In this document: piece by piece, positions 1,452-61,500 of the stretch
How the letters are laid out: each line of letters starts with the position of its first letter
Numbering within the stretch: the first letter of the stretch is position 1
From: Oscillospiraceae bacterium
GTDB lineage: Bacteria > Bacillota > Clostridia > Oscillospirales > CAG-272
DNA length: 64,000 nucleotides
Assembly (NCBI GenBank): GCA_015065135.1
Contig: SVQY01000001.1
Span: 10,859 to 74,858 of the forward strand
Direction: 5' to 3'
The notes under the pieces: generated by a model
Seen by the model: only the letters and a program-made list of their open reading frames with translations
The model's database searches: none
Told to the model about the DNA's origin: nothing
Translations under genes and position numbers: made by a program

Positions 1452-1470
1452 GCTGAAAAACGATACCGTT

Positions 1471-2325
1471 TCACTTTTTTTGAAACCGCTTGGCATATCC
1501 GCAGCGGCGGCAAAGCGCCTCCACGGCTCTTCTCTTGGTAAAGCCGTCATACATCGCACACGCCCGCGCACCCTCCAAAATCTCCTGCAGCGGTGTGTCA
1601 AACAGATTACCGAGCGCAAGTGACCCCTCGGCATCCAAACAGCAGGGCACCACCGTGCCATCGCATAGCACACCGATCTGATCACGCAGACCATAGCAAA
1701 AGATAGCCTCATCCAAAGGCGCCTCCGGCGCGGCTGCATCCGGCCAGTCAAAGCGCTGTCCCCATTCCAGAAAGAGCCTGTCCGCCAGGCGCATGCTGCT
1801 GCCGCCGCGCACCGCCCCCCACTCTCCGGGAAAGGCTGCGTGCAGCTGCTCCAGAACGGCAGCATTGCTCCGCTCATCCTCGCTTTGCAGGTTCCATAGT
1901 CTCAACGCCACGATGCAGCCGCCGGCAGCTGCCGCCTTGGCGAAGGCAATGCACTGCTCCAGATATTCCGGTGCCGCAAAGGCAGGGTTCGCAGCCGGTG
2001 CGTGCAAAGAGATGCTGATCTTATAAGGCAGCTTTTCCAATACCGTCCGGCCACTTTTTTGCAGCAATGCGCCGTTGGTGGTGATCATTGGGCGAAAGCC
2101 CTTTTCCCATGCGCGTTTCACAAATTGCCCCAATAACGGGTGGAGAAACGGCTCACCCATCAAATGAAAATAAAGGTAGGTGACCTGCCCGGCAAGCGCA
2201 TCGGTGAGCTGCTCGAACTCTGCCTCGGTCAGCATCCGCCTTTCTCGGCGCGTGCCGTGACAAAAGCTACATTGCAGATTGCAGATATTGGTGATCTCTA
2301 AAAAAGCCTTGTCAATATGCCGCAC
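1471..2325 (-). CDS. Radical SAM / SPASM-domain protein
   Basis: CNLQCSFCHG (CxxxCxxC) cluster near the N-terminus and C-terminal Cys motifs (PCCLD, CRRCGY). GTG start is preceded by GGGAGGGG. Confidence 0.75.
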   Translation of the reverse strand: MRHIDKAFLEITNICNLQCSFCHGTRRERRMLTEAEFEQLTDALAGQVTYLYFHLMGEPFLHPLLGQFVKRAWEKGFRPMITTNGALLQKSGRTVLEKLPYKISISLHAPAANPAFAAPEYLEQCIAFAKAAAAGGCIVALRLWNLQSEDERSNAAVLEQLHAAFPGEWGAVRGGSSMRLADRLFLEWGQRFDWPDAAAPEAPLDEAIFCYGLRDQIGVLCDGTVVPCCLDAEGSLALGNLFDTPLQEILEGARACAMYDGFTKRRAVEALCRRCGYAKRFQKK

Positions 2326-2402
2326 GCTCTCCCCTCCCTTCCTTTTTTCCTATTATATCACGCGCAGAGTGGATTGTAAAGCGCCGACAGTCTTAAAACG
2401 TC

Positions 2403-2431
2403 TTGACATTTTCCAAAAGCTTTTTTATAAT
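2403..2431 (+). promoter_or_regulatory. Sigma-70-type promoter of TIM-barrel paralog 1
   Basis: TTGACA (2403-2408), 17-nt spacer, TATAAT (2426-2431). The spacer contains the palindrome AAAAGCTTTT (2415-2424). Confidence 0.7.
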
Positions 2432-2490
2432 GATAGCAGATACAAGCGAGAGTGCTCTCTTGCAAAGTCCATGTTATTTGGGAGGTCAAA

Positions 2491-3417
2491 ATGCTGAAAA
2501 TCAGTGTACAGTCTGCCGGTTGGTACAAAAAGGACGATCCCGACGGCTCCTTTGCCTTTATCAAGAAATGCGGCTTTGAGGCCGTAGACTTTAACATCGA
2601 CCATTACCTCTCGGTCAAAGCACTACTCAAAAGCGAGGCGGAGCCGATCTCCTTTTTCGATCAGCCCACCGAGGATATTCTGACATTCTTCACCCCTTTG
2701 AAGGAGGCGGCCGAAAGGCACGGCATCAGCTTTGCCCAGATGCACGCCCCCGCACCCGTTTGGATCCCCGACCGCCCCGAGCTGACCGATTACATTCTTA
2801 TGTCTGTGGAAAAGTGCCTGGAGGTATGCCGCTTTGTGGGCTGCCCCGCCCTGGTGGTGCATCCCGACCGTCAGCGGAACAAGGACGACGAGTGGGAGCA
2901 CAATATGAGTATGTACCGCAAGCTGATCCCCGCCGCCGTGCGCACCGGGGTCAAGGTCTGCCTGGAAAATCTACCCACCCACTTCAACGGGCGGCTGACC
3001 GACGGCGTTTGCAACAGCGGCGAGGAGGTCTGCCGCTACATCGACACCCTGAACGCAGAGGCCGGTGCGGAGGTCTTCGGCTACTGCTTTGACGTGGGTC
3101 ACGCCAATATGATGGGCAACAACCTCTACGACCATATCACCAAGGTAGGGCATCGCCTCACCTGCCTGCACATCCACGACAACAACGGCACCGCCGACTG
3201 GCACACCGCCCCCTACACCTGTGTAGCGCCTGCGGGCCTGCAGACCGACTGGGAGGGCTTTATCCTCGCGCTGCGGGAGATCGGCTATCGGGGCGATCTG
3301 AACTTTGAGACCTTCCGCGTCATGCGCCATCTGCCAAAGCCCCTGCACGAAAAAATGCTTTCCTATATCGCCGAGGTGGGTCGCTACTTCCGCGATCAGA
3401 TCCTTGCGGAGGAATAA
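2491..3417 (+). CDS. Sugar phosphate isomerase/epimerase, xylose-isomerase-like TIM barrel (paralog 1 of 4)
   Basis: GGAGG lies 6 nt before ATG 2491. Motifs VVHP, CLENL, DVGHAN, LHIHDN and FETF match the metal-ligand pattern of the AP-endonuclease-2/xylose-isomerase-like fold. Confidence 0.8.
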   Translation: MLKISVQSAGWYKKDDPDGSFAFIKKCGFEAVDFNIDHYLSVKALLKSEAEPISFFDQPTEDILTFFTPLKEAAERHGISFAQMHAPAPVWIPDRPELTDYILMSVEKCLEVCRFVGCPALVVHPDRQRNKDDEWEHNMSMYRKLIPAAVRTGVKVCLENLPTHFNGRLTDGVCNSGEEVCRYIDTLNAEAGAEVFGYCFDVGHANMMGNNLYDHITKVGHRLTCLHIHDNNGTADWHTAPYTCVAPAGLQTDWEGFILALREIGYRGDLNFETFRVMRHLPKPLHEKMLSYIAEVGRYFRDQILAEE

Positions 3418-3423
3418 CGGCTT

Positions 3424-3459
3424 CAAGCAGCCGCGCATAGCGTGGCTGCTTGTTTTTTT
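3424..3459 (+). terminator. Intrinsic terminator after paralog 1
   Basis: Hairpin CAAGCAGCC...GGCTGCTTG followed by T7. Confidence 0.75.
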
Positions 3460-3478
3460 ATAAAATTTTCCGAATGCC

Positions 3479-3507
3479 TTGACATTCGGAAAAAGCTTTT
3501 TTATAAT
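3479..3507 (+). promoter_or_regulatory. Sigma-70-type promoter of TIM-barrel paralog 2 (duplicate of the 2403 promoter)
   Basis: TTGACA (3479-3484), 17-nt spacer, TATAAT (3502-3507). The spacer palindrome is AAAAAGCTTTTT. The inverted repeat CCGAATG/CATTCGG (3470-3489) straddles the -35 box. Confidence 0.7.
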
Positions 3508-3570
3508 GAAGGTAACTGCAAGGAAAGGGCAATCCCCTTGCGGAATTTATAACCCTTGGAGGTTTTTATT

Positions 3571-4503
3571 ATGCTGAAAATCGGTGTGCAGTCCGCCGGC
3601 TGGTACAATAAGGATGACCCCGACGGCTCCTTTGCCTTTATCAAATCCTGCGGCTTTGATGCAACGGACTTCAACATTGATCACTACCTTTCCACCGGCG
3701 CGCTAGCAAAAAGCCCCGACGCCCCCCACTCCTTCTTTGACAAGAGCATTGAGGAGATCCTGGAGTTCTTCACGCCCCTGAAGGAGGCATCCGAAAAGCA
3801 CGGCGTTGCCATTGCGCAGATGCACGCGCCCTTCCCGGTCTGGGTCAAGGACCGTGAGGACATCACCGATCACGCGCTGATGGCTGTGGAAAAGTGCCTG
3901 CAGGTCTGTGAGTACGTGGGCTGCCCTGCCATCGTGGTGCATCCCGTGGGTCGCTCCACCAAGGAAAAGGAGATCGCCTGCAATCTGGAGATCTACCGCC
4001 GTCTGATGCCCATGGCCGTTAAGACCGGTGTGAAGATCTGCCTTGAAAATCTGTTTAGCGGTTATAAGGGCCGTGTGACCGAGGGCCCCTGCTCCGACGT
4101 GAGCGAGGCCTGCTGGTATATCGACACCTTGAACGCAGAGGCCGGCTGCGACGCCTTTGGCTTCTGCCTTGACGTGGGTCACGCCAATCTGCTTGGTCGC
4201 AACATAAAGGAATACATCAAAAAGCTGGGCAAGCGCCTGACCGTTCTGCACATTCACGATAATGATGCCAGATACGACCTGCACGGTATGCCCTACACCT
4301 TTACCCGCAACTGGGGCGCAGACTGGATCTGCGACTGGGACGGCTTTGTGGAGGGGCTGAAGGAGATCGGCTATGAGGGCGCCCTCGGCTTTGAGACCTT
4401 CCGTGTGATCTGCTCCAACTTCCCCCGTCCCCTCTGGCCCGAGGCTCTGAAGCTGATCAGCGCCACCGGCCGCTACTGGGCAAGCCGCATCGAAGCGAAA
4501 TAA
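3571..4503 (+). CDS. Sugar phosphate isomerase/epimerase, xylose-isomerase-like TIM barrel (paralog 2 of 4)
   Basis: GGAGG precedes ATG 3571. Roughly half of the residues are identical to paralog 1 by eye, and the motif set is the same (VVHP, CLENL, DVGHAN, LHIHDN, FETF). Confidence 0.8.
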   Translation: MLKIGVQSAGWYNKDDPDGSFAFIKSCGFDATDFNIDHYLSTGALAKSPDAPHSFFDKSIEEILEFFTPLKEASEKHGVAIAQMHAPFPVWVKDREDITDHALMAVEKCLQVCEYVGCPAIVVHPVGRSTKEKEIACNLEIYRRLMPMAVKTGVKICLENLFSGYKGRVTEGPCSDVSEACWYIDTLNAEAGCDAFGFCLDVGHANLLGRNIKEYIKKLGKRLTVLHIHDNDARYDLHGMPYTFTRNWGADWICDWDGFVEGLKEIGYEGALGFETFRVICSNFPRPLWPEALKLISATGRYWASRIEAK

Positions 4504-4515
4504 GGAGAAGGAACT

Positions 4516-5442
4516 ATGCTGAAGATCTGTGTACAAACGGGCGGCAGCGGCTACAACCCCTACGATCCCGCCCCCGGCTTTGCCATGCTGAAAAAATGCG
4601 GCTTTGACTCGGTGGACTACAACACCGGCTATCTGCTGCCCGGCTCTGCCATCACCAAAGGGCCTCTCACCGAGTTCTTTGATCAGGATAAGGAGGGCAT
4701 CCTGGCACACTTTGCCCCCATCAAGGCTGCCGCTGAGGAAAACGGCATCGACTTTTCTCAGATGCACGCACCCTTCCCCGTCTGGGTCAAGGACAAGGAG
4801 GACGTGAACGCCTATATGATCACCGTGGTGGAAAAGCTCTGCCGCGTCTGCGCGTTTCTTGGCTGTCCCGCCCTTGTGGTGCACCCTATCAGTCGCACCC
4901 TGAAGGAGGACGAGATCTCCACCAACTTCGCTCTCTATCGGGCGCTGATCCCCGTGGCCAAGGAGACCGGTGTCAAGATCTGCCTGGAGAATATGTTCGT
5001 GAACTTTAACGGACATATGCTGGAGGGCTCCTGCGCCGATGCCGCCGAGGTATGCAACTATATCGACACCCTGAACGCAGAGGCAGGCGCGGATTGCTTC
5101 GGCTACTGCCTGGACGTGGGTCACGCCAATCTGATGGGCAAAAATCTCCGCCGCTTTGTCCGCGCACTGGGTCACAGACTGACCGTGCTGCACATCCACG
5201 AGAACAACGGCATTCTGGATCAGCATCTGGCGCCCTACACCCAGACCGCTGTCTCCACCACCAAGAACGCCATGGACTGGGAGGGCTTTCTCCTGGGTCT
5301 GCGGGAGATCGGCTACAAGGGAGACCTCAGCTTTGAGACCTTCCACGCAACCGACCTGACCCCCGCTCCCCTCCGCCCCGCTATCCTGACCTACATTGCC
5401 GCCATCGGCCGCTACTGGGCGGACCGCATTACGGCGGAATAA
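4516..5442 (+). CDS. Sugar phosphate isomerase/epimerase, xylose-isomerase-like TIM barrel (paralog 3 of 4)
   Basis: Starts 12 nt after paralog 2 with AAGGAGAAGG upstream. Same conserved motif set as the other paralogs. Confidence 0.8.
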   Translation: MLKICVQTGGSGYNPYDPAPGFAMLKKCGFDSVDYNTGYLLPGSAITKGPLTEFFDQDKEGILAHFAPIKAAAEENGIDFSQMHAPFPVWVKDKEDVNAYMITVVEKLCRVCAFLGCPALVVHPISRTLKEDEISTNFALYRALIPVAKETGVKICLENMFVNFNGHMLEGSCADAAEVCNYIDTLNAEAGADCFGYCLDVGHANLMGKNLRRFVRALGHRLTVLHIHENNGILDQHLAPYTQTAVSTTKNAMDWEGFLLGLREIGYKGDLSFETFHATDLTPAPLRPAILTYIAAIGRYWADRITAE

Positions 5443-5447
5443 CCCCT

Positions 5448-5476
5448 TCCCCCGAGCAAAACTCGGGGGAATTTTC
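5448..5476 (+). terminator. Hairpin (weak terminator or attenuator) between paralogs 3 and 4
   Basis: Stem TCCCCCGAG/CTCGGGGGA with a 5-nt loop, followed by ATTTTC. Confidence 0.45.
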
Positions 5477-5523
5477 AAAAAACGCATACCGTTTTCACTT
5501 TTTGATGCAAGGAGGAGCTTTTT

Positions 5524-6450
5524 ATGCTCGAGATCAGCGTGCAGACCGGCGGTCTGCAATATGACGATCGCAACGCCGATGAGGTGTTCGGCATGCTGGC
5601 AGCCGCCGGCTTTGAGGCAATGGATTTCAACATTGATCCCCACCTGCCCCCCAATGCCATTTCCAAGGGGCCGCTCACCGACTTTTTCGATCAGTCGGTA
5701 GAAAGCTTGATCGACTATTATCGCCCCGTAAAGGCAGCGGCGGAGAAGCACGGCATCGCTTTCGGGCAGATGCACGCCCCCTTTCCGCTTTGGGTGGAGG
5801 GCAAGCCGGAGGTCAATGACTATATGATCACGGTGGTGGATAAGTGCGCCGCCCTCTGTCAATTCTTAGGCTGCCCCCAGCTGGTGGTGCATCCCATCAC
5901 CCGCCCCACCAAGGAGGAGGAGTGGGAGGTCAACATGGCCATGTACCGCGCCATGATCCCTACGGGCAAGAAATACGGTGTGAAGCTCTGCCTGGAGAAC
6001 CTGCCTCACGGCGCACGCGGTCGCACCGTGGAGGGCGTCTGCTGCGATGCCGCCGAGGTCTGCCGCTATCTGGATACCCTCAACGCCGAGGCGGGGGAGG
6101 AGGTCTTCGGCTTTTGCTTTGACCTTGGCCACGCCAACATTCTGGGGCTGCGCATCCGCGATTATCTGAAGGGCATCGGACAACGCCTCACCTGTCTGCA
6201 CCTGCACGACAACAACGGCACCTCCGATTGGCACACCGCCCCCTACACCTGCATTGGCGGCGCTTACTACTCCACCGACTGGGAGGGGCTTTTGCAGGGG
6301 CTTGACGAGATAGGCTACCGCGGCACCCTCAATTTTGAGACCTTCCGCGCCACCAAGGGGCTGCCCCGCCGTCTGCAAAGGGAGATGCTCCACTACATTG
6401 CCGAGGTGGGCCGCTATTTCCGCGACCGCTTGCTCGGAAACGAGGTCTGA
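5524..6450 (+). CDS. Sugar phosphate isomerase/epimerase, xylose-isomerase-like TIM barrel (paralog 4 of 4)
   Basis: AAGGAGGAG RBS. Same motif set (VVHP, CLENL, DLGHAN, LHLHDN, FETF). Confidence 0.8.
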   Translation: MLEISVQTGGLQYDDRNADEVFGMLAAAGFEAMDFNIDPHLPPNAISKGPLTDFFDQSVESLIDYYRPVKAAAEKHGIAFGQMHAPFPLWVEGKPEVNDYMITVVDKCAALCQFLGCPQLVVHPITRPTKEEEWEVNMAMYRAMIPTGKKYGVKLCLENLPHGARGRTVEGVCCDAAEVCRYLDTLNAEAGEEVFGFCFDLGHANILGLRIRDYLKGIGQRLTCLHLHDNNGTSDWHTAPYTCIGGAYYSTDWEGLLQGLDEIGYRGTLNFETFRATKGLPRRLQREMLHYIAEVGRYFRDRLLGNEV

Positions 6451-6480
6451 TATCCGCAAAACACCCCCAAACGGGATGAA

Positions 6481-6517
6481 AAAACGCGCTCTGCCGAGTC
6501 GGCAGAGCGCGTTTTTT
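6481..6517. terminator. Bidirectional terminator between paralog 4 and lacI-family gene
   Basis: Hairpin AACGCGCTCTGCCGAGTCGGCAGAGCGCGTT with flanking A- and T-runs. Confidence 0.8.
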
Positions 6518-7493
6518 ATAGCTTCATGATGCTCTTACCCGCGTGGAACAGAGTGGGGATGGTCAAGGTCAACGGGCTATTGCTGCGCCCCTCCACCAGA
6601 CGGGTCTCGATCTCCCGCATGGCAAGGGCGCAGACCTCCTCGATCCGCCCGTCGATATACGCCACGTCCAGCTGCTCGTCCAAGGGGATGGGCACGCCGT
6701 CCATAGAGACCACCGAAAGGTCGTCGGGCAAAGCAAGTCCCCGGCGGCGCGCCTCCGCAATGATCCCTTGGGTCACATTGCCGTAAGCACCGAACACGGC
6801 GGTGGGCGGCTCGGGCAGCGCCATCAGCTGCGCCACGCCGTCGATGCCCGCCTCCTCAAACCGCTTTTGCGAGCGGATGAAATAGCGATCCTCTAAAAAA
6901 AGTCCGCAGTTTTTCAGACACGCATCCAATTTTTGCGCTTTTTTTAGGGTCAGCGGCTCGCTGACGTAGGCAATGCGACGGTGCCCGTTTTCCACCAGAT
7001 AGGACACCGCCTCGGCAAGCCCCGCCTGCAGCTCCGCGTTCACGCAAACGCCGTTTTCCCCCGCACCGTGACCGATATTGATGAAAACGGTCTTGCTGCC
7101 GCAGGGAAACTCGGTATAGCCCGAAACGGAGATCAGCGCATCCACCTTGCCGTGCTCGCTGTGATACTTGATCAGGGTATTTTCCATCTGCGGATCAAAA
7201 TTACTGATGGAAAGCAGCATGGTATAGCCGTTGCGATCGATGGCACGCTTGAATTCCTCAATAAATTTAATGTAGCATCGGCTGTCGATCTCGGGCACGA
7301 TCAGCGCCACCACAGGGCGCTCGTAGGGCGCGTTATAGAACTTCGCAAAGCAGCCGTGCTCTCTTGCCACCGCAAACACGTGCTCCCGCATGGCATCGCT
7401 GACACCCTCCTTGCCCGAAAAGGCCTTGGATGCCACAGAGACCGAGACGTTTGCAAGCTTGGCAAGACGGCTGAGCGTCATTTCACCGGACAT
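6516..7493 (-). CDS. LacI-family transcriptional regulator
   Basis: N-terminal HTH (MTLSRLAKLANVSVSVASKAFSG) followed by a periplasmic-binding-protein-like sugar-binding domain. The start was moved to ATG 7493, which has a GGAGG RBS; the 5' extension in the track has no RBS. Confidence 0.85.
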   Translation of the reverse strand: MSGEMTLSRLAKLANVSVSVASKAFSGKEGVSDAMREHVFAVAREHGCFAKFYNAPYERPVVALIVPEIDSRCYIKFIEEFKRAIDRNGYTMLLSISNFDPQMENTLIKYHSEHGKVDALISVSGYTEFPCGSKTVFINIGHGAGENGVCVNAELQAGLAEAVSYLVENGHRRIAYVSEPLTLKKAQKLDACLKNCGLFLEDRYFIRSQKRFEEAGIDGVAQLMALPEPPTAVFGAYGNVTQGIIAEARRRGLALPDDLSVVSMDGVPIPLDEQLDVAYIDGRIEEVCALAMREIETRLVEGRSNSPLTLTIPTLFHAGKSIMKL

Positions 7494-7523
7494 AGCGCAC
7501 CTCCTTTTGATAAGCTCCCTTTG

Positions 7524-7608
7524 ATTATAGCACGCCCCTTGCCCTTCGTCAAGAACAGAAAATTTTTCTGCGGGTTTTGCATTGACTTTCACGCCCGAGC
7601 ATTATAAA
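7524..7608. promoter_or_regulatory. Divergent promoter region with a central perfect palindrome (candidate operator)
   Basis: Minus-strand lacI promoter: TTGACG (7547-7552), 17 nt, TATAAT (7524-7529). Plus-strand GH promoter candidates: TTGCAT-17-CATTAT or TTGACT-15-TATAAA (7577-7608). The palindrome CAGAAAA-T-TTTTCTG (7556-7570) lies between them. Confidence 0.55.
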
Positions 7609-7641
7609 ATGGAGGTAACGACAGACAAGGAGGGTTCCCTT

Positions 7642-8928
7642 ATGGCAACCATCAGGCTTGACACAAGCAAACAACTGAAAAGCATAAAGCCCCTGCACGC
7701 AGGCGGTCAACCGCCCGTCACATCTGCGGCAAAGGACACCTATTTTCACTATCTCACCGAGGCGGGCATTCCCTACTCCCGTCTCCACGACGTGAGCGGT
7801 TCCTTCGGCGGCGGCAAGTATGTGGACATCCCCAATATTTTCCGCGATTTTGATGCGGACGTCAACGACCCCGCAAGCTATGACTTCACCTTCACCGACC
7901 TGCTTATAAAGCAGCTGGTCGAGGCAGGTGTCGAGCCCTACTATCGACTTGGCGTGACCATCGAAAACGCCGCACGTGTCAAGGCCTATTACGCCCACCC
8001 GCCGAGGGACTATGACAAATGGGCGCAGATCTGCGAGCATATCATCCGCCACTACACCGAGGGGTGGGCAGACGGTTATCACCACAAGATCGCCTATTGG
8101 GAGATCTGGAACGAGCCCGATAACGGTCGCCAGATGTGGTCGGGCAGCTTTGAGAACTACTACCGCCTGTACGATGTGACCGCAAAACACCTGAAAAAGT
8201 GCTTTGGCGACAAGATCAAGGTCGGCGGCTTTGCCTCCTGCGGCTTTTACGGCGTGGCAGGCGGCAACGATCCCTTCAACATGAAGCCCGAGCATTATCA
8301 AAGATATCTCGACTTCTTCCACGGCTTTATGGCATACGTAAAGGAGCAGAGCTCCCCCATCGACTTCTTCTCCTGGCACAGCTATGCCCCCACCATGAAC
8401 ACGATCCGCATGGACAAGTGGGTGGCTGAGCAGCTGGACACCTACGGCTACGGACACATTGAGAGCCACCTCAACGAGTGGAACCCCTTCCAGGAGGAGG
8501 CAGGCAACGGCCATCACGCCGCAGAGGTCGCCTCTACGCTGCTGGCCCTGCAGAACGGTCGCGCCGACATGACCTGCATCTACGATATGCGCATCGACGG
8601 CCCCGACTATTCCGCCTTCTTTGATGCGAAGACCAAGCTCCCTCACCAGACCTACTACACCTTCGTGGCATTCAATACCCTTTACAAATTGGGCACGCAG
8701 GTGGAATGCGTCAGCGACACCGACGGCGTCTTTGCCATCGCCGCCACCGACGGCAAGAAAAACGCCCTGATGCTCTCCAACATCAGCGGCACCAACCAAG
8801 CCCTCTCCATCGAGGGTGTTGACCTCACCGAGGCACGTGTCTCGTATATTGACGACCACCGTATGCTCTCCTGGGCGCCGAACGCGAGGGAGCTGAAAAA
8901 CAACAGCGTGGTGCTGATCGAATGGTGA
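7642..8928 (+). CDS. Clan GH-A (beta/alpha)8 glycoside hydrolase, GH39-like, cytoplasmic (paralog 1 of 3)
   Basis: AAGGAGGG RBS before ATG 7642. YWEIWNEPD (NEP acid/base) and SHLNEWN (candidate nucleophile Glu) motifs. No signal peptide. The family assignment is tentative. Confidence 0.65.
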   Translation: MATIRLDTSKQLKSIKPLHAGGQPPVTSAAKDTYFHYLTEAGIPYSRLHDVSGSFGGGKYVDIPNIFRDFDADVNDPASYDFTFTDLLIKQLVEAGVEPYYRLGVTIENAARVKAYYAHPPRDYDKWAQICEHIIRHYTEGWADGYHHKIAYWEIWNEPDNGRQMWSGSFENYYRLYDVTAKHLKKCFGDKIKVGGFASCGFYGVAGGNDPFNMKPEHYQRYLDFFHGFMAYVKEQSSPIDFFSWHSYAPTMNTIRMDKWVAEQLDTYGYGHIESHLNEWNPFQEEAGNGHHAAEVASTLLALQNGRADMTCIYDMRIDGPDYSAFFDAKTKLPHQTYYTFVAFNTLYKLGTQVECVSDTDGVFAIAATDGKKNALMLSNISGTNQALSIEGVDLTEARVSYIDDHRMLSWAPNARELKNNSVVLIEW

Positions 8929-8993
8929 GCACCGCGCCTCAACAAATCACGAACACGACCAACGACCGATCAAAAAAGCAGATCTCCGCAGCC

Positions 8994-9094
8994 GCTTTTC
9001 TTTTGACCCTATAGGCGCAAAAGAAAAGCTATCAAAAGAAAACGCCGTTTTATGGGGCGCCGCCCCATTCCCCGCCACCTTTTGAAAAAGGTGG
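8994..9094 (+). repeat. Three consecutive stem-loops in the spacer between GH paralogs 1 and 2
   Basis: Stems GCTTTTCTTTT/AAAAGAAAAGC (8994-9029), ATGGGG/CCCCAT (9052-9068) and CCACCTT/AAGGTGG (9075-9094). Confidence 0.6.
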
Positions 9095-9122
9095 ACGAAA
9101 ACCTTTCACAAAGGAGCAAATT

Positions 9123-10484: not shown

Positions 10485-10519
10485 TATCCCCCAAAACGGT
10501 ATTGAAAAAGGAGTAAATT

Positions 10520-51458: not shown

Positions 51459-51475
51459 TTTTGGAGTACTGCGTT

Positions 51476-53061: not shown

Positions 53062-53147
53062 GGATATTCCCTCCTTGTTGGTTGCAAAAAGCGCAAACGG
53101 TGTGCGTTTTTGCGTAATTTTCTTTCAACAAGGGGGCGTCGGCATGC

Positions 53148-54404
53148 TTATGGCTTTTGCTTGCCGCCATTCTGACGCACGTGCTCAGCATAAAGCTTTG
53201 CCGCCTGCTCGGTTTTGTTTTCTCCGTATTCATAATATTTCCGATCGCGCAGATCACTTGGCAGATATTGCTGCCGCACGTAGTGACAGGTGTAGTCGTG
53301 CGGATATTTATATCCTTGAAACAGCGGGGATTGCAGATGCCGCGGTACCTCGTTGCCGCGGCCGGCATCCACATCCTCCATCGCTGCTGCCAGCGCCAGA
53401 TACGCCGTGTTGGATTTGGGCGCGGTGGCCAGCATAAGGGCAGCATTGATAAGCGGAATGCGTGCCTCGGGGAAGCCCAGCTCCATTGCCGATTCGCAGC
53501 AGGAGCGCACAACGGTGGCTGCCTGCGGATAGGCCAGGCCAACATCCTCCGAGGCGATCACCTGCAGTCTGCGGCAAAGCGAGATCAGCTCGCCTGCTGC
53601 CACCAGCTTTGCTACATAAAAGGCGGTCGCATCCGGATCCGAGCCCCGGATCGACTTTTGCAGGCAGGAAAGCAGATCGTAGTGCGTGTCGTCATTGAAA
53701 TTGCCTACACGCACGTAAAAATCATCCACATTTTCCTTAGAAATCCATACCGTTTCCTGATTTTCGTTACCGCTAGCCGCAAAATAGGCGTTCTCCAAAA
53801 GGCCGATGCCGCGGCGCACATCGCCCCGGACACCGTTGGCAATATGAGAAAGAACGGCCTCCTCGGCCTGCACGCTTGTGCCGTGCTCGGCATTGAGATG
53901 TGCCAGGGCGCGCGCCAGAGCGGGCACCATTTCGGCAGGCTTCACCGGTCGGAACTCAAACAACGAGGAACGGGAAATGATCGCGTTATAAATGTAAAAA
54001 TGAGGATTTTCGGTAGTGGAGGCGATCAGCGTAACACGCCCATCCTCCATGTACTCCAGCAGGGATTGCTGCTGCTTGCGATTGAAATACTGGATCTCGT
54101 CCAGATACAGCAGGATGCCGCCGGCGCCGAACACATTGGCAGTCTCGGCCAACACCTCTTTGACGTCAGAGAGGCTGGCAGAGGTACAGTTCAAACGGCG
54201 AAAGACCATCCCGGACTGCTTGGCAATAATAGCCGCAGCGGTGGTCTTGCCCGTGCCGGGAGGGCCAAAAAAGATCATATTGGTGATACGGCCGCTCTCG
54301 ACCATACGGCGCACGACACCGCGGGGGCCAAAGAGGTGGCTCTGCCCCACGATGGTGTCAAAGCTATCCGGTCGCAGGATATCGGCTAATTGCTCGTTTC
54401 TCAT
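53148..54404 (-). CDS. rarA: Replication-associated recombination protein A (AAA+ ATPase)
   Basis: Walker A GPPGTGKTT, Walker B LYLDEI, C-terminal MgsA domain (YKYPHDY). Confidence 0.9.
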   Translation of the reverse strand: MRNEQLADILRPDSFDTIVGQSHLFGPRGVVRRMVESGRITNMIFFGPPGTGKTTAAAIIAKQSGMVFRRLNCTSASLSDVKEVLAETANVFGAGGILLYLDEIQYFNRKQQQSLLEYMEDGRVTLIASTTENPHFYIYNAIISRSSLFEFRPVKPAEMVPALARALAHLNAEHGTSVQAEEAVLSHIANGVRGDVRRGIGLLENAYFAASGNENQETVWISKENVDDFYVRVGNFNDDTHYDLLSCLQKSIRGSDPDATAFYVAKLVAAGELISLCRRLQVIASEDVGLAYPQAATVVRSCCESAMELGFPEARIPLINAALMLATAPKSNTAYLALAAAMEDVDAGRGNEVPRHLQSPLFQGYKYPHDYTCHYVRQQYLPSDLRDRKYYEYGENKTEQAAKLYAEHVRQNGGKQKP

Positions 54405-54451
54405 ACCGTTTCCTCACATTTTTACATTTTGCGAAAGCGCACAGCACCCGG

Positions 54452-55699
54452 TCACTCGCCCGAGCGGATAATATCCCCCTCACCTGCTATATGCGGCAAG
54501 CGGCAAAAAAATGCCATTTTCGGATGGGGGGCCGATGGGATCGGTATCCCGTTTTCATCGTAAAGCTCCTTTACGTCAAAGGGGATGCCCACTCTGCCCG
54601 GCGTCAGCAGCTCCGCTCTGTCACCGAGGCTGACCTTATTGCGCTGCAGCAGGCGACAGAGCTTGCCCTCCTCATTGACGGCCTCAAGGCCTATGGGCAG
54701 CTCGCCTGTTTCCGTGACGGTAGCGAAATAAGCCTTTTCGCGAATATAACCAACATCCTCGGTAAGCTGAGGATTCTGACGGGGATCGTCAAACCAATAG
54801 CCGGTGCAATAGGCACGGTGAGAAACGCTTTCCACCTCGCGATACCATGCCTCGTTAAAGGTGTACCCCTCCGGATCGGCATAGTAGGCATCCAAAGCCA
54901 TACGGTAAGCATTGGTCACCACCGCCGTGTAATAAGCACTCTTCATGCGCCCCTCGATCTTAAAGGAGGTCACGCCCGCGCGGATCAGCTCGGGGATATG
55001 GCGCAACGCGCACATATCCTTAGAAGAAAGGATGAAGGTGCCGTTCTCGTTCTCCATCACCGGCAGCCGCTCATCGGGGCGCTTTTCCTCTACGATGGTG
55101 TAATTCCAGCGACAGGGCTGCGCGCAGCCGCCGCGATTGGCATCTCGGCCGGTAAACTCGTTGGAAAGCATGCAACGTCCACTGTAGGAAACGCACATAG
55201 AGCCGTGCACGAAGGCCTCCAGCTCCACCTTGGGATCCAGCGCCTCGCGAATGTCGCGCACCTCCTGCATATTCAGCTCTCTTGCCAGCACAAGACGGGT
55301 GGCGCCCAACGCCGCCCACGCCTTCGCCGCCGCAGGGCTGACGATGCTGGCCTGGGTGGAAATATGCACGTCCATATTGGGCAAAAGCTCCCGAACGGTA
55401 GCAAAAACGCCCATATCGCTGACGATCAGACCGTCGATGTCAAGCGGCTCCAGTCGTTGCAGATACTCGCGAAGGCGAGGATATTCGCCGCCGTGCGGCA
55501 TCGTATTGACTGTCAGATACAGCTTCTTGCCGTGGGCATGAACATACGCAGCGGCCTTGGCCAGCTCCTCGTCGGTAAAGTTATCCGCCGCCGAACGCAT
55601 ACCAAAGCTCTTTCCTGCCAGATAGACCGCATCCGCGCCAAAGCGCAGCGCGGCGACAAGCTTTTCAAAATTACCCGCAGGAGACAAAAGCTCGGTCAT
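54452..55699 (-). CDS. U32-family peptidase-like protein
   Basis: ELLSPAGNFEKL, E.FVHGSMCVSYSGRC and C..PCRW motifs. The start was moved to ATG 55699 (GGGAG RBS). Confidence 0.8.
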   Translation of the reverse strand: MTELLSPAGNFEKLVAALRFGADAVYLAGKSFGMRSAADNFTDEELAKAAAYVHAHGKKLYLTVNTMPHGGEYPRLREYLQRLEPLDIDGLIVSDMGVFATVRELLPNMDVHISTQASIVSPAAAKAWAALGATRLVLARELNMQEVRDIREALDPKVELEAFVHGSMCVSYSGRCMLSNEFTGRDANRGGCAQPCRWNYTIVEEKRPDERLPVMENENGTFILSSKDMCALRHIPELIRAGVTSFKIEGRMKSAYYTAVVTNAYRMALDAYYADPEGYTFNEAWYREVESVSHRAYCTGYWFDDPRQNPQLTEDVGYIREKAYFATVTETGELPIGLEAVNEEGKLCRLLQRNKVSLGDRAELLTPGRVGIPFDVKELYDENGIPIPSAPHPKMAFFCRLPHIAGEGDIIRSGE

Positions 55700-55862: not shown

Positions 55863-57560
55863 ATGACAGAAGAGATCCGCGCGAGGCGATCGCCGGTCTT
55901 TTGGTTTGATCTTCTATGCCCCATTGCGCTTTTTCTGCTCTCCCTTCCGCTCATCTACCGCTTCGCGCTGGTGGATCTGGACCCTCACCACACCGGGTTG
56001 ATGTACAAGACCGCCCTTGACGTGGCAAACGGCAAGATCCTGTTTCGCGAGACCTTTACTCAGTACGGTGCGCTCACCGTTTATCTGCAATCGCTGGCCA
56101 TCCTTGTGCTGGGACCGCAGATCACCTCGATCCTCTTCTCCTCTGCCCTCTTTTACGCAGCCTCCTTTCCGCTGCTTTACCTGACGGCGCGCCACTTCCT
56201 GCGCTGGGGCTCGGCGCTGGCCGCCACCCTGCTCACGCTGGCCGTCGCGCCCTTTTACTTCTGGCAATATCATCCCTGGTCCAGCGTTTACGCACTTTTC
56301 TTTTTGCTGCTTTCCCTATGGCTCCTGCAGCATGCATTTGCACAAAAAGCCCGTAAACGGTATCTGTTTTTTGCGCTTTCAGGCCTTTGCGCAGCCCTGA
56401 CCTTCTGGTGCCGTCAGCCGGTAGGCTTCGTCACCGCGCTGGCCGGTCTGCTCTGCATTCTGTTCTGGCTGATACTGCTTTGGAAGCAGAAAAAGAGGGT
56501 GCTGCTGTTCGGCCTTCTTTCCTACACAGGTGGGATTGGACTTGGCGTGCTTTCCTTTCTCCTTCCCATTGCGGCAAGCGGCGCAACACGCGATTTTACA
56601 AGGCAGTGTCTGACCAATATGGCCTCCTTTGCCGCCGACCGCGCGGATGAGGGCACCGGCGCGTGGGGGATCCTGCAGCACGTGATCTACAGTCTCTTCA
56701 GAGCCCCCCTGTTCGCAGACATCGCCGAAGACGTCGCGCAGCAGCCTCGCTTTGATCTGCTGTGGCTGATACTGCCGCTGCTGGCCCTTGGTATGGCACT
56801 CTGGCTACCGATCAGATGCATCCTCGGCTTGCGCTGCGGCAAGGAGCGGCTCCGTCCCACCGAAAGCGACGTGCAGCTGCTGCTCTTCTGCGTATTTGCG
56901 GTAGCCGCCTGGCACCAGTACTACCCCGTCGCCTGCTACCGCCATTGGTATTGGGGCGCCTTCCTCTGCATCCCCGTTTTGGTCCACGCATTGGAGAAAG
57001 GGCTCGAAAAATGTGGCTCGCATCCCCATTTCCCCTTTCTTGCCGACCAACGCAAGCGGATCCTTGCCACAGTACTGCTGCTCACGCTGCTCTTTTCCTT
57101 TGACGTAGGCTTCCGCGCGGTCAAGGGCACGCAAAAGCTGACCGAAACCCATCGCACCGAAAAGTTCGAGCACGCGACCTATACCCATCTGAATGGCCTT
57201 TATCTGACTCCCACCGTGCGCGAGCACTATGCTGATCTTACCGATACGTTGGCTGCGCTGCAGCAGCAATTCCCCGAAGCCAATGTGGTCAACACCACCG
57301 GCAACGCGCTATATGCCGTATTCGGCAAAAACGATTACACCGCTCCCGATGACTCGGACGCGGTATTTGATGAGCTCTATGAGGATTGGCTGACCGCTTA
57401 TATCGCCGACAGCCGTCCCATCGTGATCGGGCCCGAGGCGCCCGAGGGCTATCTGCTCTATCACACCCCCAAGGGATATGCGGGCGACCCTTATGCCCAA
57501 AGCCACGGCATGCCCGCCAACATTTATCTGCCTGCTGAGCTTTACGCGCAGCTACCCTGA
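55863..57560 (+). CDS. Polytopic membrane protein, GT-C-fold (ArnT/PMT-like) glycosyltransferase candidate
   Basis: More than 10 TM segments in the first ~400 aa, then a soluble C-terminal domain. AAAGGAGGG RBS before ATG 55863. The family call is tentative. Confidence 0.45.
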   Translation: MTEEIRARRSPVFWFDLLCPIALFLLSLPLIYRFALVDLDPHHTGLMYKTALDVANGKILFRETFTQYGALTVYLQSLAILVLGPQITSILFSSALFYAASFPLLYLTARHFLRWGSALAATLLTLAVAPFYFWQYHPWSSVYALFFLLLSLWLLQHAFAQKARKRYLFFALSGLCAALTFWCRQPVGFVTALAGLLCILFWLILLWKQKKRVLLFGLLSYTGGIGLGVLSFLLPIAASGATRDFTRQCLTNMASFAADRADEGTGAWGILQHVIYSLFRAPLFADIAEDVAQQPRFDLLWLILPLLALGMALWLPIRCILGLRCGKERLRPTESDVQLLLFCVFAVAAWHQYYPVACYRHWYWGAFLCIPVLVHALEKGLEKCGSHPHFPFLADQRKRILATVLLLTLLFSFDVGFRAVKGTQKLTETHRTEKFEHATYTHLNGLYLTPTVREHYADLTDTLAALQQQFPEANVVNTTGNALYAVFGKNDYTAPDDSDAVFDELYEDWLTAYIADSRPIVIGPEAPEGYLLYHTPKGYAGDPYAQSHGMPANIYLPAELYAQLP

Positions 57561-57603
57561 AAGCGCCGCCGCACGGCGGCGTTTTTTGAAATGAGGTGAC
57601 CCG

Positions 57604-58491
57604 ATGCGCAATCCGCAAAAAGCCTTACAAAAATACGGCTGCCCGCTGAATGGCAAGACGGTTCTTGTTACCGGTGCCAATAGCGGCATCGGCTATGCCG
57701 CTGCCGTGCATTTTTTGATGCTCGGAGCTGATCTGCTGCTGGTCTGCCGCAGCGCCGAGCGCGGCCAAAGGGCTACGGAGCAGCTGCAAGCACAGTTCCC
57801 CGGTAGTCGGATCGTGCTGCTGCTCGCAGATCTGGCAAGCAATGCTTCGATCACAGCACTGGCACAAAATATCGCGGAACGTGGTGAGAAAATCGACATT
57901 TTTCTCTCCTGTGCCGGGGTATATTATCCCAGCGTCACCACAACCGAAGATGGTCTGCCTATGACGGTTGGCGTGAACTACGTGAGCACTGTGCGCCTGA
58001 CCGAGGCACTTCTCCCTGCAATGCACGAAAACACCCACATCGTTCTCACCACCAGCCTGACCGATCGCTTCGGAAGGGTGTGCCGCGCCCCGAAGCCCGG
58101 CGCACACGAAGGCTTTCGCGCCTATGCCGAGAGCAAGCTGCTGCTTTCCGCCTATATCTGCAAAAAAGCCCGCCTACGGGGCGAGAAAGAACCGATTTTT
58201 ACTGTCGCGCATCCGGGCATTACCGCCACCTCGCTGTTAGACCCTGCCAAGACCTCACACCATCCGCTTTTTTCTAAACTCGGCCACGCCTTTCTTTATC
58301 TTTTCACCCACTCCAAGGAAAAAGCAGCGCTGACCGCCATATACGCCGCTTGCCACGGGCAAAACGGCGATTGCATCGGTCCTCGCGGTCTCTTTGGCAT
58401 CAGCGGCTATCCCCGTCGCACACAATTCTGCCGCAACGTGCGTCGGCAAGCGGCGCGCGGTAGTGACCCCTACATCGCAGATGCAAAATAA
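57604..58491 (+). CDS. SDR-family oxidoreductase
   Basis: TGANSGIGYAAA cofactor motif and a YAESK catalytic motif. Confidence 0.8.
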   Translation: MRNPQKALQKYGCPLNGKTVLVTGANSGIGYAAAVHFLMLGADLLLVCRSAERGQRATEQLQAQFPGSRIVLLLADLASNASITALAQNIAERGEKIDIFLSCAGVYYPSVTTTEDGLPMTVGVNYVSTVRLTEALLPAMHENTHIVLTTSLTDRFGRVCRAPKPGAHEGFRAYAESKLLLSAYICKKARLRGEKEPIFTVAHPGITATSLLDPAKTSHHPLFSKLGHAFLYLFTHSKEKAALTAIYAACHGQNGDCIGPRGLFGISGYPRRTQFCRNVRRQAARGSDPYIADAK

Positions 58492-58527
58492 AAAGGCACA
58501 CCGCCGTGATCGGCGGTGTGCCTTTTT
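58490..58527. terminator. Bidirectional intrinsic terminator
   Basis: GGCACACCGCCG-tgat-CGGCGGTGTGCC flanked by A- and T-runs. Confidence 0.85.
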
Positions 58528-58545
58528 ATATGATTTCAGATACCG

Positions 58546-61500
58546 TTATTTGGCTTTTTTCTTTTTTGCCACCACAACGGCAGCTGCCGCGCCGCCGCCA
58601 AGTACAACGACACCGGCCACGATACCGATCACAAGTCCGGTGCTGCCACCGCTCTTTTCGGCATCCTGCGGATTCTCCTGCTTGTCGGTATTGGCACCGT
58701 TTTCGGTGTTATCGGCACCGAGAGCCTCTATTTTTTGCGTTTCTACCTTGGGGCATACCGCACATTTGTGTTTTTGCTCACCATCGGTGGTAGCAGTGGG
58801 TTCTTTGATGATCTCCCATTCGCCAAAATCATGCTCAGACGTGGGTGTCACACGCTGTCCGCAGCCATAGCGGCAGACCTCGGAGCAAGCGAATTCACCT
58901 GCGTGAGGCAACGGTGTCACGGCCGCACCACAGTTCTTACACGTTGTGGAGTGGCAAGCCACCGCTCCCTCGTGAACAGCGGTGGGGATCACAGCCGTAC
59001 CGCAGCCGTAGCGGCAAATCTCAGAGCAAGCGTGCAGGCCCTCGTGCTCCTTTCCGTTCACGGCAGTGCCGCAACCGTACTTACAGATATCCGAACAAGC
59101 ACGTGCACCTACGTGATTCTGATAGGGAATGAAATAGGTCTCGCAGTCGGTGCAATAATCCGAGCAAGGATAGGCAAGACCCTGGTGACGTGCTGTGGCC
59201 TCTACCGCCGTGCCGCAGCCGTATTTGCATACGGTGGAGCAGCCGTGCTCGCCCTCGTGGTTCTTGTAGGGCGTAAAGCTCTGATCGCATACGTTACAAT
59301 GATCCGAGCATTCCCTGTCGCCCTGGTGCTTTGCCTGCGGTGTAACAGGTGCGCCGCAATCCGCGCAAACCTCGGAGCACGGATGCTCTACACGATGCTG
59401 ACCGGGAGTCAACTCGGTGCCGCACCACCGGCAGGTGGTGGAGCAGCTGTACAGACCCTGATGCGGCTGAGCAGGCGTAATGCTCTCACCGCAGTACTTG
59501 CAGTTCTCGGAGCAAGCTTTTTCGCCCTCGTGCTCATTGGGAGCGATCTCTGCAGCCTTATTCAAGCGATACATCGCATTAGGTACCCACTGGCTGCTGC
59601 TGAATTCTCTGCCATAGATCTCGATGCAGTTCTCATAAACGCGGAGATAGTAGCCCTTGCTGTCGTCCCATTTCAGATGGGTCTCGCCGTACAGGGTGTA
59701 GGTCTGGGCGTACCAACCCTGGTTATAATCGTAGGAAACGCCATCATCGTAATAACCCGTAACCAGATAGGCCACGGCGGCGGTATTGAATAGATAGTTA
59801 GGCAACGCATTGTTGGGATCGGTGGGGGCGGTGGGATCGTAGTAGTTATTGTACTCGGTCATATCCCAGTGGGTGTGGCCGCTGAACATCATGGCCTCGG
59901 GGTATTTCTTCAAAATGTCGCGCAGACCCTGCTCATACTGGCCGCGGGTCTTCCAAACACCGGAACTCTTCCAATCCCGATACGCCGCATCGCCCGCGAT
60001 AACACCATCCCAGTCCTGACGGGGCATGCCACCGTCAATGGTGTTATACAGGCCCTGATGGATCAAAATGAAGGAGGGACGGTTCGCATCGCGATCCTCT
60101 GCCAGCATCTCATCCAGCCAGTTCAGCTGAGCATCGCTAAGATACGCATGGGTAATGGCCGCCTCGCTGGCGAGGAAAATATAATGAAAGCCGTTGACCC
60201 ACAGATCGTAATAAGGCAGACCGTTTTCAATATTTTCTCTGCCTGCGGCAGAAAGGAATTGGTTGGCATATTTGATGAAGCGCTCCTTCTCCTCATTATA
60301 GAAGGAGGTGTAGGAGTTGGCAGCATCTCCCAGCTTATACTCATGGTTACCGGTGGCCATAAAGATGGGGGCGGAAAGACCGGACTGCTCCCAAAGCTCA
60401 TACAGGTTTTCATATTCGACCTCACGGCCATCGTTCACCGCATCACCGGCAATGAAAATGCCCGCGGAATCGGGATCGTTGAGCTTGATGTCCTCCAGCA
60501 TACGCGCAATATTTTTATTAAACTGGTCGGTCTGCGCATCCTGCGTATGAACGTCACTCACGATCTGGAAGGAGGTCAGCAGCTTGCCCTTCTCCTGCTC
60601 GGTCACGACCTTGCGGTCGGCAGGCAGGGTGATCTTGACACAGCTCTCGGAGGCACCCGAGCCGTTATAGGCATAGACCAGCAGGGTCTTCGCCTCGTCG
60701 GGGATCACGGTAGCGGGCGGCACGGTGATATTGGTGGTCACACCCGTCACCTTGCGCAGACCGATATAGGTGTATTGGGGCAGCTTGTTGCCGCTTTCGT
60801 CGCCCCAGTAGGTGAGAATGTGCGTAGGCTTGTTGTAGGAATTGTTCAGCGCATCCGCATCCACCGTAACGGAAAGCGTGCCGCCCGCAAGACCGGTGGT
60901 CTTATCAAAGCTGTATTCCGCCGCCGTGGGGGCAAGAGGCCCTTCGCCGCTGATGGTAATATTCACACGGGTGGCATGGTTCGCTGCGGTGGCCTTGCTA
61001 TCCGGTGCAAAGACCATATACAGGCTGTAGTCACCGGGAGGCAGCTCCCACAGGTGGGGATAGTTACCGGAGGTGCCGCTTTTGCGGATATCAAAGGTAT
61101 TGGTGCCCGCGCTTGCGATCGTCTGCCAGCGGATGGACCAGTAATTGGTATGCACGTCCTCATGCTTAGGGGAGATGAACACGTGGCAGTTGGCCGCAGG
61201 GGTGTGGGCGGTCACGGTGATCGGCTCGCCGTAGGCATAGGTCTCCTTTACCTCGATACAGGGCTCGATCCTGATCTGAATGGCGTGGGTCACAGTCTTG
61301 CCGTCTTCACGTTGCGTTTTATACAGCGTGCTGGAGTCCCAGCAGTAGACCAGCCAGTAGGTGCCCACAGGCAGAGAGGTCAGATGCTTTTTGCTGACCT
61401 CGCCGCCCCAGTCCACGGCGCGGCCGGCCTCGTTCATCCAGGTGGCACAGTTCTGGCGCATCGCTTCACCGAAAACGCCTGTTTTGGCCGTGTCGTCTTT

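Follow-up and report, generated by a model that had tools for sequence, protein, structure and literature searches.

Introduction

Pasteurellaceae and Neisseriaceae are, to our knowledge, the only two families, both Gram-negative, for which a sequence-specific uptake of DNA is known. The uptake signal sequence (USS) of the Pasteurellaceae consists of the core AAGTGCGGT and two downstream AT tracts, while the DNA uptake sequence (DUS) is represented by GCCGTCTGAA and its dialects and has the receptor ComP. A core accompanied by AT tracts, a depletion in new DNA and in constrained genes and an even spacing are what is expected from an uptake-driven molecular drive (PMC7811141), and an association of the USS with terminators has been described (PMC1852404). 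The present study concerns the octamer AACGGTAT, which is dispersed over 64,000 nucleotides of an Oscillospiraceae bacterium (contig SVQY01000001.1 of assembly GCA_015065135.1, positions 10,859 to 74,858; this whole stretch is called the window hereafter). An earlier reading of the window from its letters alone (the original prediction) had listed 17 copies of the octamer and had likened it to uptake sequences or, alternatively, to a polar word of the Chi/KOPS type. No match or similarity was found between the octamer and the cores of the USS (AAGTGCGGT, ACAAGCGGT) or of the DUS (GCCGTCTGAA type); because its sequence is unrelated, AACGGTAT is not a member of the USS/DUS family. We nevertheless propose, tentatively and by analogy, that it is the core of a clade-specific 'self' word at the DNA level that is maintained by drive and works like an uptake sequence.

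Results

Abundance of the word

An exact pattern search of the window detected 18 copies of AACGGTAT when both strands were counted, ten of them in plus and eight in minus orientation (Table 1). Each of the 17 coordinates listed originally is an exact match; the copy at 28619-28626 (-) had been overlooked. Dinucleotide-preserving shuffles (n = 100) led to an expectation of 0.91 ± 0.95 copies; none of them contained more than 4, let alone 18. Markov models of the orders 2, 3, 4 and 5 predicted 1.8, 3.1, 4.2 and 6.8 copies; the higher-order models were trained on the same 64 kb, and their expectations are thus contaminated by the motif. The claimed over-representation is borne out by these numbers (18 copies versus 0.91 by shuffling or 3.1 by the third-order model), and the excess persists in the window at higher order (18 versus 6.8 at order 5). 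No other 8-mer of the window scores as high as AACGGTAT under the third-order model, and among the 9-mers AAACGGTAT ranks first. In this genome and in enriched relatives (~90 kb sampled from two species), the excess amounts to ~6- to 20-fold over chance at a density of 0.3 to 0.5 copies per kb. The individual densities are 0.28 in the window, 0.37 in the 8 kb by which this genome was extended and 0.52 in a second enriched species (L181), with observed/expected ratios of 6 to 13. The copies are spaced more regularly than at random (coefficient of variation 0.57 versus 0.95, P 0.007).

The longer repeats that had been noted are all present: AACGGTATCAAAAA occurs four times, AACGGTATTGAAAAAG at two sites (10495 and 26896), and the flanks of the copies at 1463 and 5486 are alike (1455-1478 and 5478-5503). 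A literature search for the word AACGGTAT returned primers alone.

Anatomy of the longer signal

A run of A5 or T5 starts no more than 12 nt downstream of 12 of the 18 copies, compared with a background of 3.8% (P about 1e-13); among the ten copies assigned to coding sequence, six have such a run. The statement that an A/T tract nearly always follows the core is correct for these 12 copies and does not apply to the other six. Upstream, an A5 run is located within 20 nt of seven of the 18 copies (P 2e-6). The base directly 3' of the core is C, G or T, and A in none of the 18 window copies. The fuller form is roughly (ATATCCCCC-NN)-AACGGTAT-(C/G/T)-N0-3-(A5-6 or T5-7), in which the upstream ATATCCCCC-NN or ATTACCCC- is restricted to a subset (10495, 43392, 17926 and the one-mismatch copy 33586). 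The fullest form is present just beyond the window in the same genome (L178:2802), where TATCCCCCA-AACGGTAT-C-AAAAAA precedes a terminator. Downstream of the core, A-runs and T-runs can stand in for each other, which suggests that DNA shape rather than RNA sequence is relevant. The one-mismatch copies retain the flanks of exact copies, as would be expected of a decaying and renewing family.

Placement relative to genes and terminators

Genes were mapped by scoring codon usage, with gene calls from databases as the training set, and the remaining genes were named by Pfam. Wherever database calls exist, the map has the same stop codons; beyond the database-annotated stretches the calls are our own, and the starts of corA and trmE decide whether two 'coding' copies represent 5' regions. 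Coding sequence makes up about 88% of the window. Of the 18 copies, ten are contained entirely in called genes and six entirely in spacers, and the remaining two overlap with a start or a stop codon. Synonymous-codon shuffling predicts 2.0 instead of ten in-gene copies (~5-fold excess; none of 1000 shuffles reached 10), and the excess is found for sense copies (6 versus 0.89 expected, P 0.001) as well as for antisense copies (4 versus 1.08, P 0.018). Non-coding DNA harbours six to eight copies, versus 0.26 in shuffled spacers, corresponding to more than 20-fold enrichment.

Convergent junctions (n = 10, 613 nt) contain four exact copies, to which the one-mismatch copies 6470 (in the spacer) and 50121 (just inside the 3' end of a flanking gene) can be added. 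Four further exact copies are present in same-direction spacers (5.2 kb) and none in divergent promoter spacers (n = 9, 2096 nt). The order of elements at convergent junctions is constant and runs from the gene to its stop codon, the word, an A-run, a GC-rich hairpin, a T-run and the end of the opposing gene. A position between stop codon and terminator hairpin, which had been stated for the intergenic copies in general, applies to 1463, 12694, 17926 and 58540; it does not apply to 5486, which is located just downstream of a hairpin, or to the other intergenic copies.

Within genes the word is present in several reading frames, as had been noticed before: four sense copies are read as xxA ACG GTA Txx, one as AAC GGT ATG and one as AAA CGG TAT, and four copies are antisense. 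Among the 112 Thr-Val pairs of the window genes 27 are encoded by ACC-GTT and nine by ACG-GTA, both well above the product of the single-codon frequencies, and each of these codon pairs contains part of the word or of its complement. Where xxA-Thr-Val-Txx is possible in window genes, four of the five sites are written ACG GTA and so spell the word.

Table 1. Exact and one-mismatch copies of AACGGTAT in the window, with their surroundings
Position	Strand	Form	Gene context	Flanks and terminators
1463-1470	-	exact	directly after TGA stop of radical-SAM gene (1471-2325, -); convergent junction	11 nt from bidirectional terminator 1422-1451
5486-5493	-	exact	antisense, between two AP_endonuc_2 paralogs (both +); 30 nt before next start codon	16 nt right of hairpin 5449-5469
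10495-10502	+	exact	between two GH39 paralogs; 10 nt past stop, 17 nt ahead of next ATG	extended form ATATCCCCCAA-AACGGTAT-TGAAAAAGG
12694-12701	+	exact	10 nt past stop of 12276-12683 (+); convergent junction	adjoins A-run of bidirectional terminator 12703-12735
17926-17933	+	exact	41 nt past stop of Zip transporter gene; convergent junction	ATTACCCCACA upstream; adjoins bidirectional terminator 17935-17973
23775-23782	+	exact	antisense, 54 nt downstream of guaA-like gene (23837-24844, -)	
26896-26903	+	exact	sense, in holA; codons GGA ACG GTA TTG (Thr-Val), variable part of the protein	
28619-28626	-	exact	antisense, in aspS; AAA TAC CGT TAT, conserved KYRY motif	
34164-34171	+	exact	sense, in peptidase U32 gene 32568-34568; AAC GGT ATG	
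36618-36625	+	exact	antisense, 16 nt inside 5' end of trmE/mnmE (35274-36641, -)	
37197-37204	+	exact	antisense, in unnamed gene 36645-37700 (-)	
43392-43399	-	exact	antisense, 5' end or 5' untranslated region of corA (start codon uncertain)	ATATCCCCCGT upstream, T7 downstream
49144-49151	+	exact	codons 2-5 of DUF4430 lipoprotein gene (ATG AAA ACG GTA TCA AAA)	
52266-52273	-	exact	sense, 17 nt before stop of BacA gene (52249-53061, -)	T6 follows
53747-53754	-	exact	sense, in rarA/mgsA (53148-54404, -)	
54403-54410	-	exact	overlaps rarA start codon (GAGGA-AACGGT-ATG); 41 nt past stop of upstream peptidase U32 gene	
56356-56363	+	exact	sense, in membrane protein gene 55863-57560 (AAA CGG TAT)	A5 upstream, T6 downstream
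58540-58547	-	exact	overlaps TAA stop of 1200-aa Metallophos gene (58546-62148, -); convergent junction	12 nt from bidirectional terminator 58489-58527
6470-6477	+	one mismatch, AACGGGAT	convergent junction	CACCCCCA upstream, then G-AAAAAA; terminator hairpin 6485-6511 next
33586-33593	-	one mismatch, AACGGTAA	in gene, antisense	ATATCCCCCGT upstream; 18/19 positions equal to the 43392 copy
50121-50128	+	one mismatch, AACGGTAC	3' end of gene 49644-50150	GAAAAAA follows; terminator of convergent junction just beyond
53096-53103	+	one mismatch, AACGGTGT	intergenic	A5 upstream, GCGTTTTT downstream as at 5486
55394-55401	+	one mismatch, AACGGTAG	antisense, in peptidase U32 gene 54452-55699 (-)	CAAAAA follows

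The word in other genomes and clades

Exact protein matches assign the window DNA to one uncultured species that is recurrent in ruminant-gut metagenomes and whose strains are 99.5-100% identical. Its nearest species-representative genomes are metagenome-assembled genomes (MAGs) labelled Oscillospiraceae, Eubacteriales or Clostridia with ~86% identical aspS DNA; for one window gene, the next homologue shares 73% protein identity. Footprinting with closer relatives was given up, as neither the next homologues (~73% protein identity) nor the same-species contigs (99.5-100%) are informative.

Ratios of observed to expected copies were determined across genomes with a third-order Markov model. The ratio is 5.8 for the window, 5.4 for the 8.1-kb extension of the same genome (three copies), 4.1 for the four nearest MAGs, 10 for the L181 species (ten copies in 19.3 kb), in which AACGGTAT is the second-ranked 8-mer, 3.8 for the rest of the L181 clade and 3.3 for a third high-GC clade. 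Two lower-GC sister clades of 439 kb and 192 kb have a ratio of 1.1 each, and three unrelated genomes with one SDR gene in common as well as the prophage and strain-specific DNA of the window's own species have a ratio of 1.3. In terms of clades, c2, c7 and c8 are enriched (3.3 to 10), whereas c9 and c12 are not (1.1). The enrichment is not confined to the window, and the same word is conserved in a second species and three related high-GC clades. Convergent junctions of the non-enriched sister clades contain no alternative ('dialect') word.

Core DNA contains 20 copies in 66.6 kb, as opposed to two copies in 23.8 kb of prophage, strain-specific and low-GC DNA (one-sided P 0.046; small sample); the low-GC stretch at 46-51.5 kb was counted as accessory in this comparison. 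That stretch (46000-51500) has a GC content of about 0.50 versus 0.56, contains a single copy of the word and encodes rubrerythrin, small unnamed genes and a tRNA-Glu(CTC) (51384-51458); two near-identical terminator hairpins are located at 47948 and 48718. It may be acquired DNA. The prophage part (L175:1-8753), in which no copy of the word was found, adjoins the left edge of the window and encodes an integrase, an Mrr-like nuclease, an SSAP/Sak recombinase, HNH and SSB. In strain L176 the radical-SAM gene is bordered on its right by a different block of accessory DNA.

A metagenome scan for ATATCCCCC-NN-AACGGTAT gave 88 matches, mostly due to chance or to one unrelated conserved gene, and ~10 of them looked canonical; the scan retrieved no DNA of the window species and so gives no genome-wide count. 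A viral scan for the long form gave a single match. Pooled k-mer ranking in relatives was discarded, for orthologous coding blocks dominate and the ranking is not meaningful.

Signs of directional change at individual sites

At the holA site Thr-Val is present in the window and in L008, L055, L069 and L050, and in four of these five genomes it is written as ACG GTA T, with differing neighbouring codons; the word codons are the same in the window species, L008, L055 and L069. One subclade has Pro-Lys-Thr in a variable loop of aspS where other clades have Asp-Arg-Glu, and this generates the long form CCCCCAAAACGGTAT. L181 and L182, which are 97-98% identical, differ in three copies, each time by AACGGTAT versus AACGGCAT at a Gly codon. 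A series AGC GGC, AAC GGC and AAC GGT is found across genomes at the end of an SDR gene, and in L181 (10799-10884, equal to L046:7925-8010) two inverted copies of the word bracket a terminator hairpin. This inverted pair (10799/10877) has ~25 nt of imperfectly symmetric flanks, and its left copy represents the last codons of the SDR gene. The SDR oxidoreductase itself (L181:10001-10831, L184, L186, L187) has 92-100% protein identity in quite different gene neighbourhoods, which suggests that it was recently transferred horizontally. A different word, CGTACGGG, is the top 8-mer of L181:8160-9830, where repeats with CGTACGGG surround tRNA and HNH endonuclease genes.

The 3' flank of guaA features two GGTATCAA boxes 11 bp apart that are found across species in an otherwise diverged spacer (window 23766-23789, L043:115-140, L182:15215-15245, L181:18895-18925 and L067). 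The boxes are degenerate in the window, and the site of the copy at 23775 is kept in L043 and L182 as the second box. The tandem boxes look like a candidate protein-binding site.

Orientation along the chromosome

It had been noted that most copies left of the rpmH locus are in plus and most copies right of it in minus orientation. The numbers are roughly right; the difference is not significant and does not coincide with a replication landmark. The segment 35274-41195 (-) comprises rnpA, yidC, jag, an unnamed 351-aa gene and trmE, which is the usual origin-side cluster. No adjacent dnaA, no DnaA-box cluster and no switch of the GC skew, which is negative across the entire window, were found. 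As all three are missing, the flip point is not an origin and the window does not contain oriC; nor does the orientation of the word follow the skew with any polarity.

Identities tried and rejected

Promoters (sigma-70 -35/-10, SigB-, SigF-, SigD- and ECF-like) were dismissed on account of unsuitable spacings and because most copies point towards a convergently oriented gene; perfect TTGACA-N17-TATAAT promoters are present elsewhere in this organism. The CcpA cre operator (TGWNANCGNTNWCA, a 14-bp pseudo-palindrome) fits the 49144 copy only (TGAAAACGGTATCA), and the four bases upstream of the core vary among the others. LacI-type, LexA and CtsR operators each fit a single copy. A conserved RNA hairpin was rejected because the word takes differing roles in the folds and several spacers fold no better than shuffles. 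Rfam 15 covariance models gave no match at the motif sites of the motif spacers, and elsewhere only a tRNA and a sub-threshold T-box were at or near significance; the latter, a T-box leader-like match at 15453-15671 (+) with 74.5 bits (Rfam gathering score 93), is located directly upstream of a PALP-domain gene (15802-17022). A mobile element resembling miniature inverted-repeat transposable elements (MITEs) or repetitive extragenic palindromes (REPs) is not supported either: terminal repeats are missing, only about 27 nt are shared, and the neighbouring hairpins are all different, so that the word is not a REP- or MITE-type repeat. The copies between the AP_endonuc_2 and between the GH39 paralogs differ in their flanks and are no paralogy artefact. 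These paralogs are part of a sugar-utilisation block (2491-11833) with four tandem AP_endonuc_2 (xylose-isomerase-like) and three tandem GH39 genes and a LacI-family regulator on the opposite strand.

Discussion

The properties of AACGGTAT are those that the literature gives for uptake sequences, and for this reason we place a drive-maintained 'self' word first among the possible explanations, as a tentative one. The likeness to uptake sequences seen by the original prediction holds with regard to the core with A/T tracts, the occurrence on both strands, in genes and in spacers, the terminators and the even spacing; in addition, related clades share the word, and prophage and accessory DNA is not enriched. 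According to this proposal the word would have accumulated across the core genome by a sequence-biased process and not by site-by-site function, and the process that fits best would be an uptake or recombination of DNA with a sequence bias, of the kind seen with the USS and the DUS. Fragments with the word and a bendable A/T tract would be preferred by a DNA receptor belonging to the transformation machinery, and alleles that create the word would then spread. Copies would pile up wherever the sequence can change, i.e. in 3' flanks of genes, A-tracts of terminators, variable protein segments and synonymous sites, and would remain rare in recently acquired DNA. The bias in uptake or recombination, the receptor and the competence of the organism are what we infer from the observed statistics and anatomy of the word.

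Several points weigh against a word that works like an uptake sequence. USS and DUS reach about 0.8-1 copies per kb and a more than 100-fold enrichment, and AACGGTAT with 0.3-0.5 copies per kb and 6- to 20-fold enrichment stays far below these values. The copies are mostly single and stand beside hairpins of unrelated sequence instead of constituting stem-forming inverted pairs; exceptions are the one flanking inverted pair in L181 and two word-built hairpins (L046:4703 and L096). Sense orientation prevails over antisense by 24:7 (P 0.003), which a signal at the RNA level would predict just as well and which keeps such a role open. Competence or pilin genes are not encoded in the 64-kb window. 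Sequence-specific uptake is not known in Gram-positive bacteria, and our literature search found none for them; it also agrees with the earlier remark that no such signal has been described for Clostridia. Our data cover ~72 kb of the window species and ~19 kb of the second enriched species (~90 kb), the clade figures are not fully independent because some of the relatives' matches represent the orthologous aspS and holA sites, and the polymorphisms between L181 and L182 and at the SDR gene are without outgroup polarisation. Finally, the flanks of metagenomic contigs with ATATCCCCC-NN-AACGGTAT are without extra copies (2 in 36 kb).

An element at transcript 3' ends is a serious alternative, although we consider it unlikely. 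AACGGUAU and the A-run would be single-stranded between the stop codon and the terminator hairpin and would be recognised in their RNA form, or in their DNA form by an RNase or a protein associated with termination, in order to tune termination, 3'-end stability or translational coupling, and the in-gene copies would be secondary. The sense bias is in line with such a function, and so is the arrangement at convergent junctions, where the four exact copies and 6470 are located between the stop codon of the sense gene and the hairpin with the A-run facing the hairpin. The absence of copies from divergent promoter spacers points in the same direction, as do copies at translation initiation (10495, 49144 and 54403), with the RBS-AACGGT-ATG form (RBS, ribosome-binding site) in five relatives. 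Against an RNA-level function stand the antisense excess within genes and the additional antisense copies at 5486, 23775 and 43392, and the word is present at only about one third of the window terminators. A conserved RNA structure is not apparent: the word constitutes a 5' arm and loop, a loop and 3' arm or an unpaired segment. The A-runs and T-runs downstream can replace each other, and no Rfam family matches. Moreover, an equivalent word is missing from sister clades whose terminators are of the same type.

Somewhat less probable is a binding site of an abundant DNA-binding protein, either a nucleoid-associated or topology factor or a regulator with many sites, that would recognise A-tract-flanked sites at the ends of transcription units in a similar way as gyrase and IHF do at the REPs and bacterial interspersed mosaic elements (BIMEs) of E. 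coli. A/T tracts on one or both sides, the regular spacing and the concentration at convergent junctions would fit such a protein; the conservation of the two guaA boxes within a diverged spacer is typical of a tandem protein-binding site, and TTGATACC is itself over-represented in L181. Yet tandem boxes are found at one locus only, and the half-site-like ATA(T/C)C and GGTAT form no palindrome and have a spacer that varies from 5 to 9 nt. Selection on hundreds of sites, including synonymous positions, is furthermore difficult to envisage without drive.

The word could also be devoid of a dedicated function and result from a context-dependent bias of mutation or repair, from codon-pair preferences (ACG-GTA, ACC-GTT, GGT-AT) and from locally copied intergenic segments; we regard this as improbable. 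It is true that the sub-words AACGGT (2.6-fold) and AACGGTA (5.7-fold) are elevated too, that Thr-Val pairs generally favour ACC-GTT and ACG-GTA, and that AACGGCAT is the commonest one-mismatch variant (12 copies), with all three strain differences being C/T at one position. The excess is, however, limited to the full 8-mer, as NACGGTAT beginning with C, G or T and AACGGTAN ending with A, C or G are near expectation. The more than 20-fold enrichment in non-coding DNA is not accounted for, codon effects leave the conserved flanks and the long ATATCCCCC form unexplained, and prophage DNA of the same cell is not enriched. A Chi-like word or a polar word similar to FtsK-orienting polar sequences (KOPS) or SpoIIIE recognition sequences (SRS), read by AddAB or FtsK/SpoIIIE, which the original prediction had offered as its alternative, is highly improbable, for although an octamer at ~1 copy per 3.5 kb with a 5- to 10-fold enrichment is close to E. 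coli Chi and core rather than prophage DNA is enriched, the 10:8 orientation without a skew switch tracks gene direction and not one DNA strand, and the strong non-coding excess and A/T-tract flanks are foreign to Chi or KOPS.

In a more far-reaching reading, which is conceivable but doubtful, AACGGTAT would be the first 'self' word of the uptake type outside Proteobacteria; a subclade of uncultured ruminant-gut Oscillospiraceae would carry out sequence-selective natural transformation, recognising AACGGTAT together with an A/T tract, and its core genomes would have gained hundreds of copies in this way. A third independent case, in Gram-positive-type gut anaerobes, would mean that self-biased transformation is commoner than thought and would offer direct access to gene flow in a clade that is uncultured and of ecological importance. 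Transforming DNA for these organisms could then be designed with the word, and a comparison between clades that possess it and clades that lack it would permit a search for the receptor. Should it act at transcript 3' ends or bind a chromosomal protein, it would still be a new and easily scored genomic signal. In either case it represents a strong taxonomic signature, both in binning and in separating core from mobile DNA in these MAGs.

Comparison with known systems

AACGGTAT shares with uptake sequences the consensus with AT tracts, the occurrence on both strands without replication polarity, the depletion in acquired DNA and the distribution over related clades; inverted pairs that form terminator stems are a trait in which it differs. 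It resembles the USS in its short exact core and in flanking A/T tracts reminiscent of a DNA-shape feature, in its location in genes and spacers on both strands with a non-coding excess at gene 3' ends and terminators, and in its fairly regular spacing, depletion in new DNA, one-mismatch variants and presence in related species (USS traits: PMC7811141, PMC1852404). Unlike the USS, it adjoins terminator hairpins instead of forming them, and its host belongs to the Gram-positive-type Clostridia without an outer membrane. Common features with the DUS are a clade-specific word, a density that varies with lineage and the association with terminators, including the inverted pair that flanks a terminator in L181 (10799/10877). 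In contrast to the DUS, with its unrelated sequence and higher density, no series of dialects was detected, and the non-enriched sister clades are without an alternative word.

Chi sites (RecBCD/AddAB) are comparable in octamer scale, frequency (one copy in about 3 to 5 kb), core-genome preference and a moderate degree of enrichment and differ from AACGGTAT, which has no replication-strand polarity, a strong non-coding excess and conserved A/T-tract flanks. As with REPs and BIMEs, the non-coding copies follow stops, are found within operons or at convergent gene ends and are absent from promoter spacers; REPs, however, are conserved imperfect palindromes of 20-40 bp that are exclusively extragenic, whereas AACGGTAT is a linear 8-mer with flanks and differing hairpins, and ten of its 18 copies are located inside genes. 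HIP1 of cyanobacteria (GCGATCGC) is likewise a clade-specific octamer that is strongly over-represented in coding and non-coding DNA, but it is palindromic and has a methylation site, whereas AACGGTAT is asymmetric, is flanked by A/T tracts and has a preference for the 3' ends of genes.

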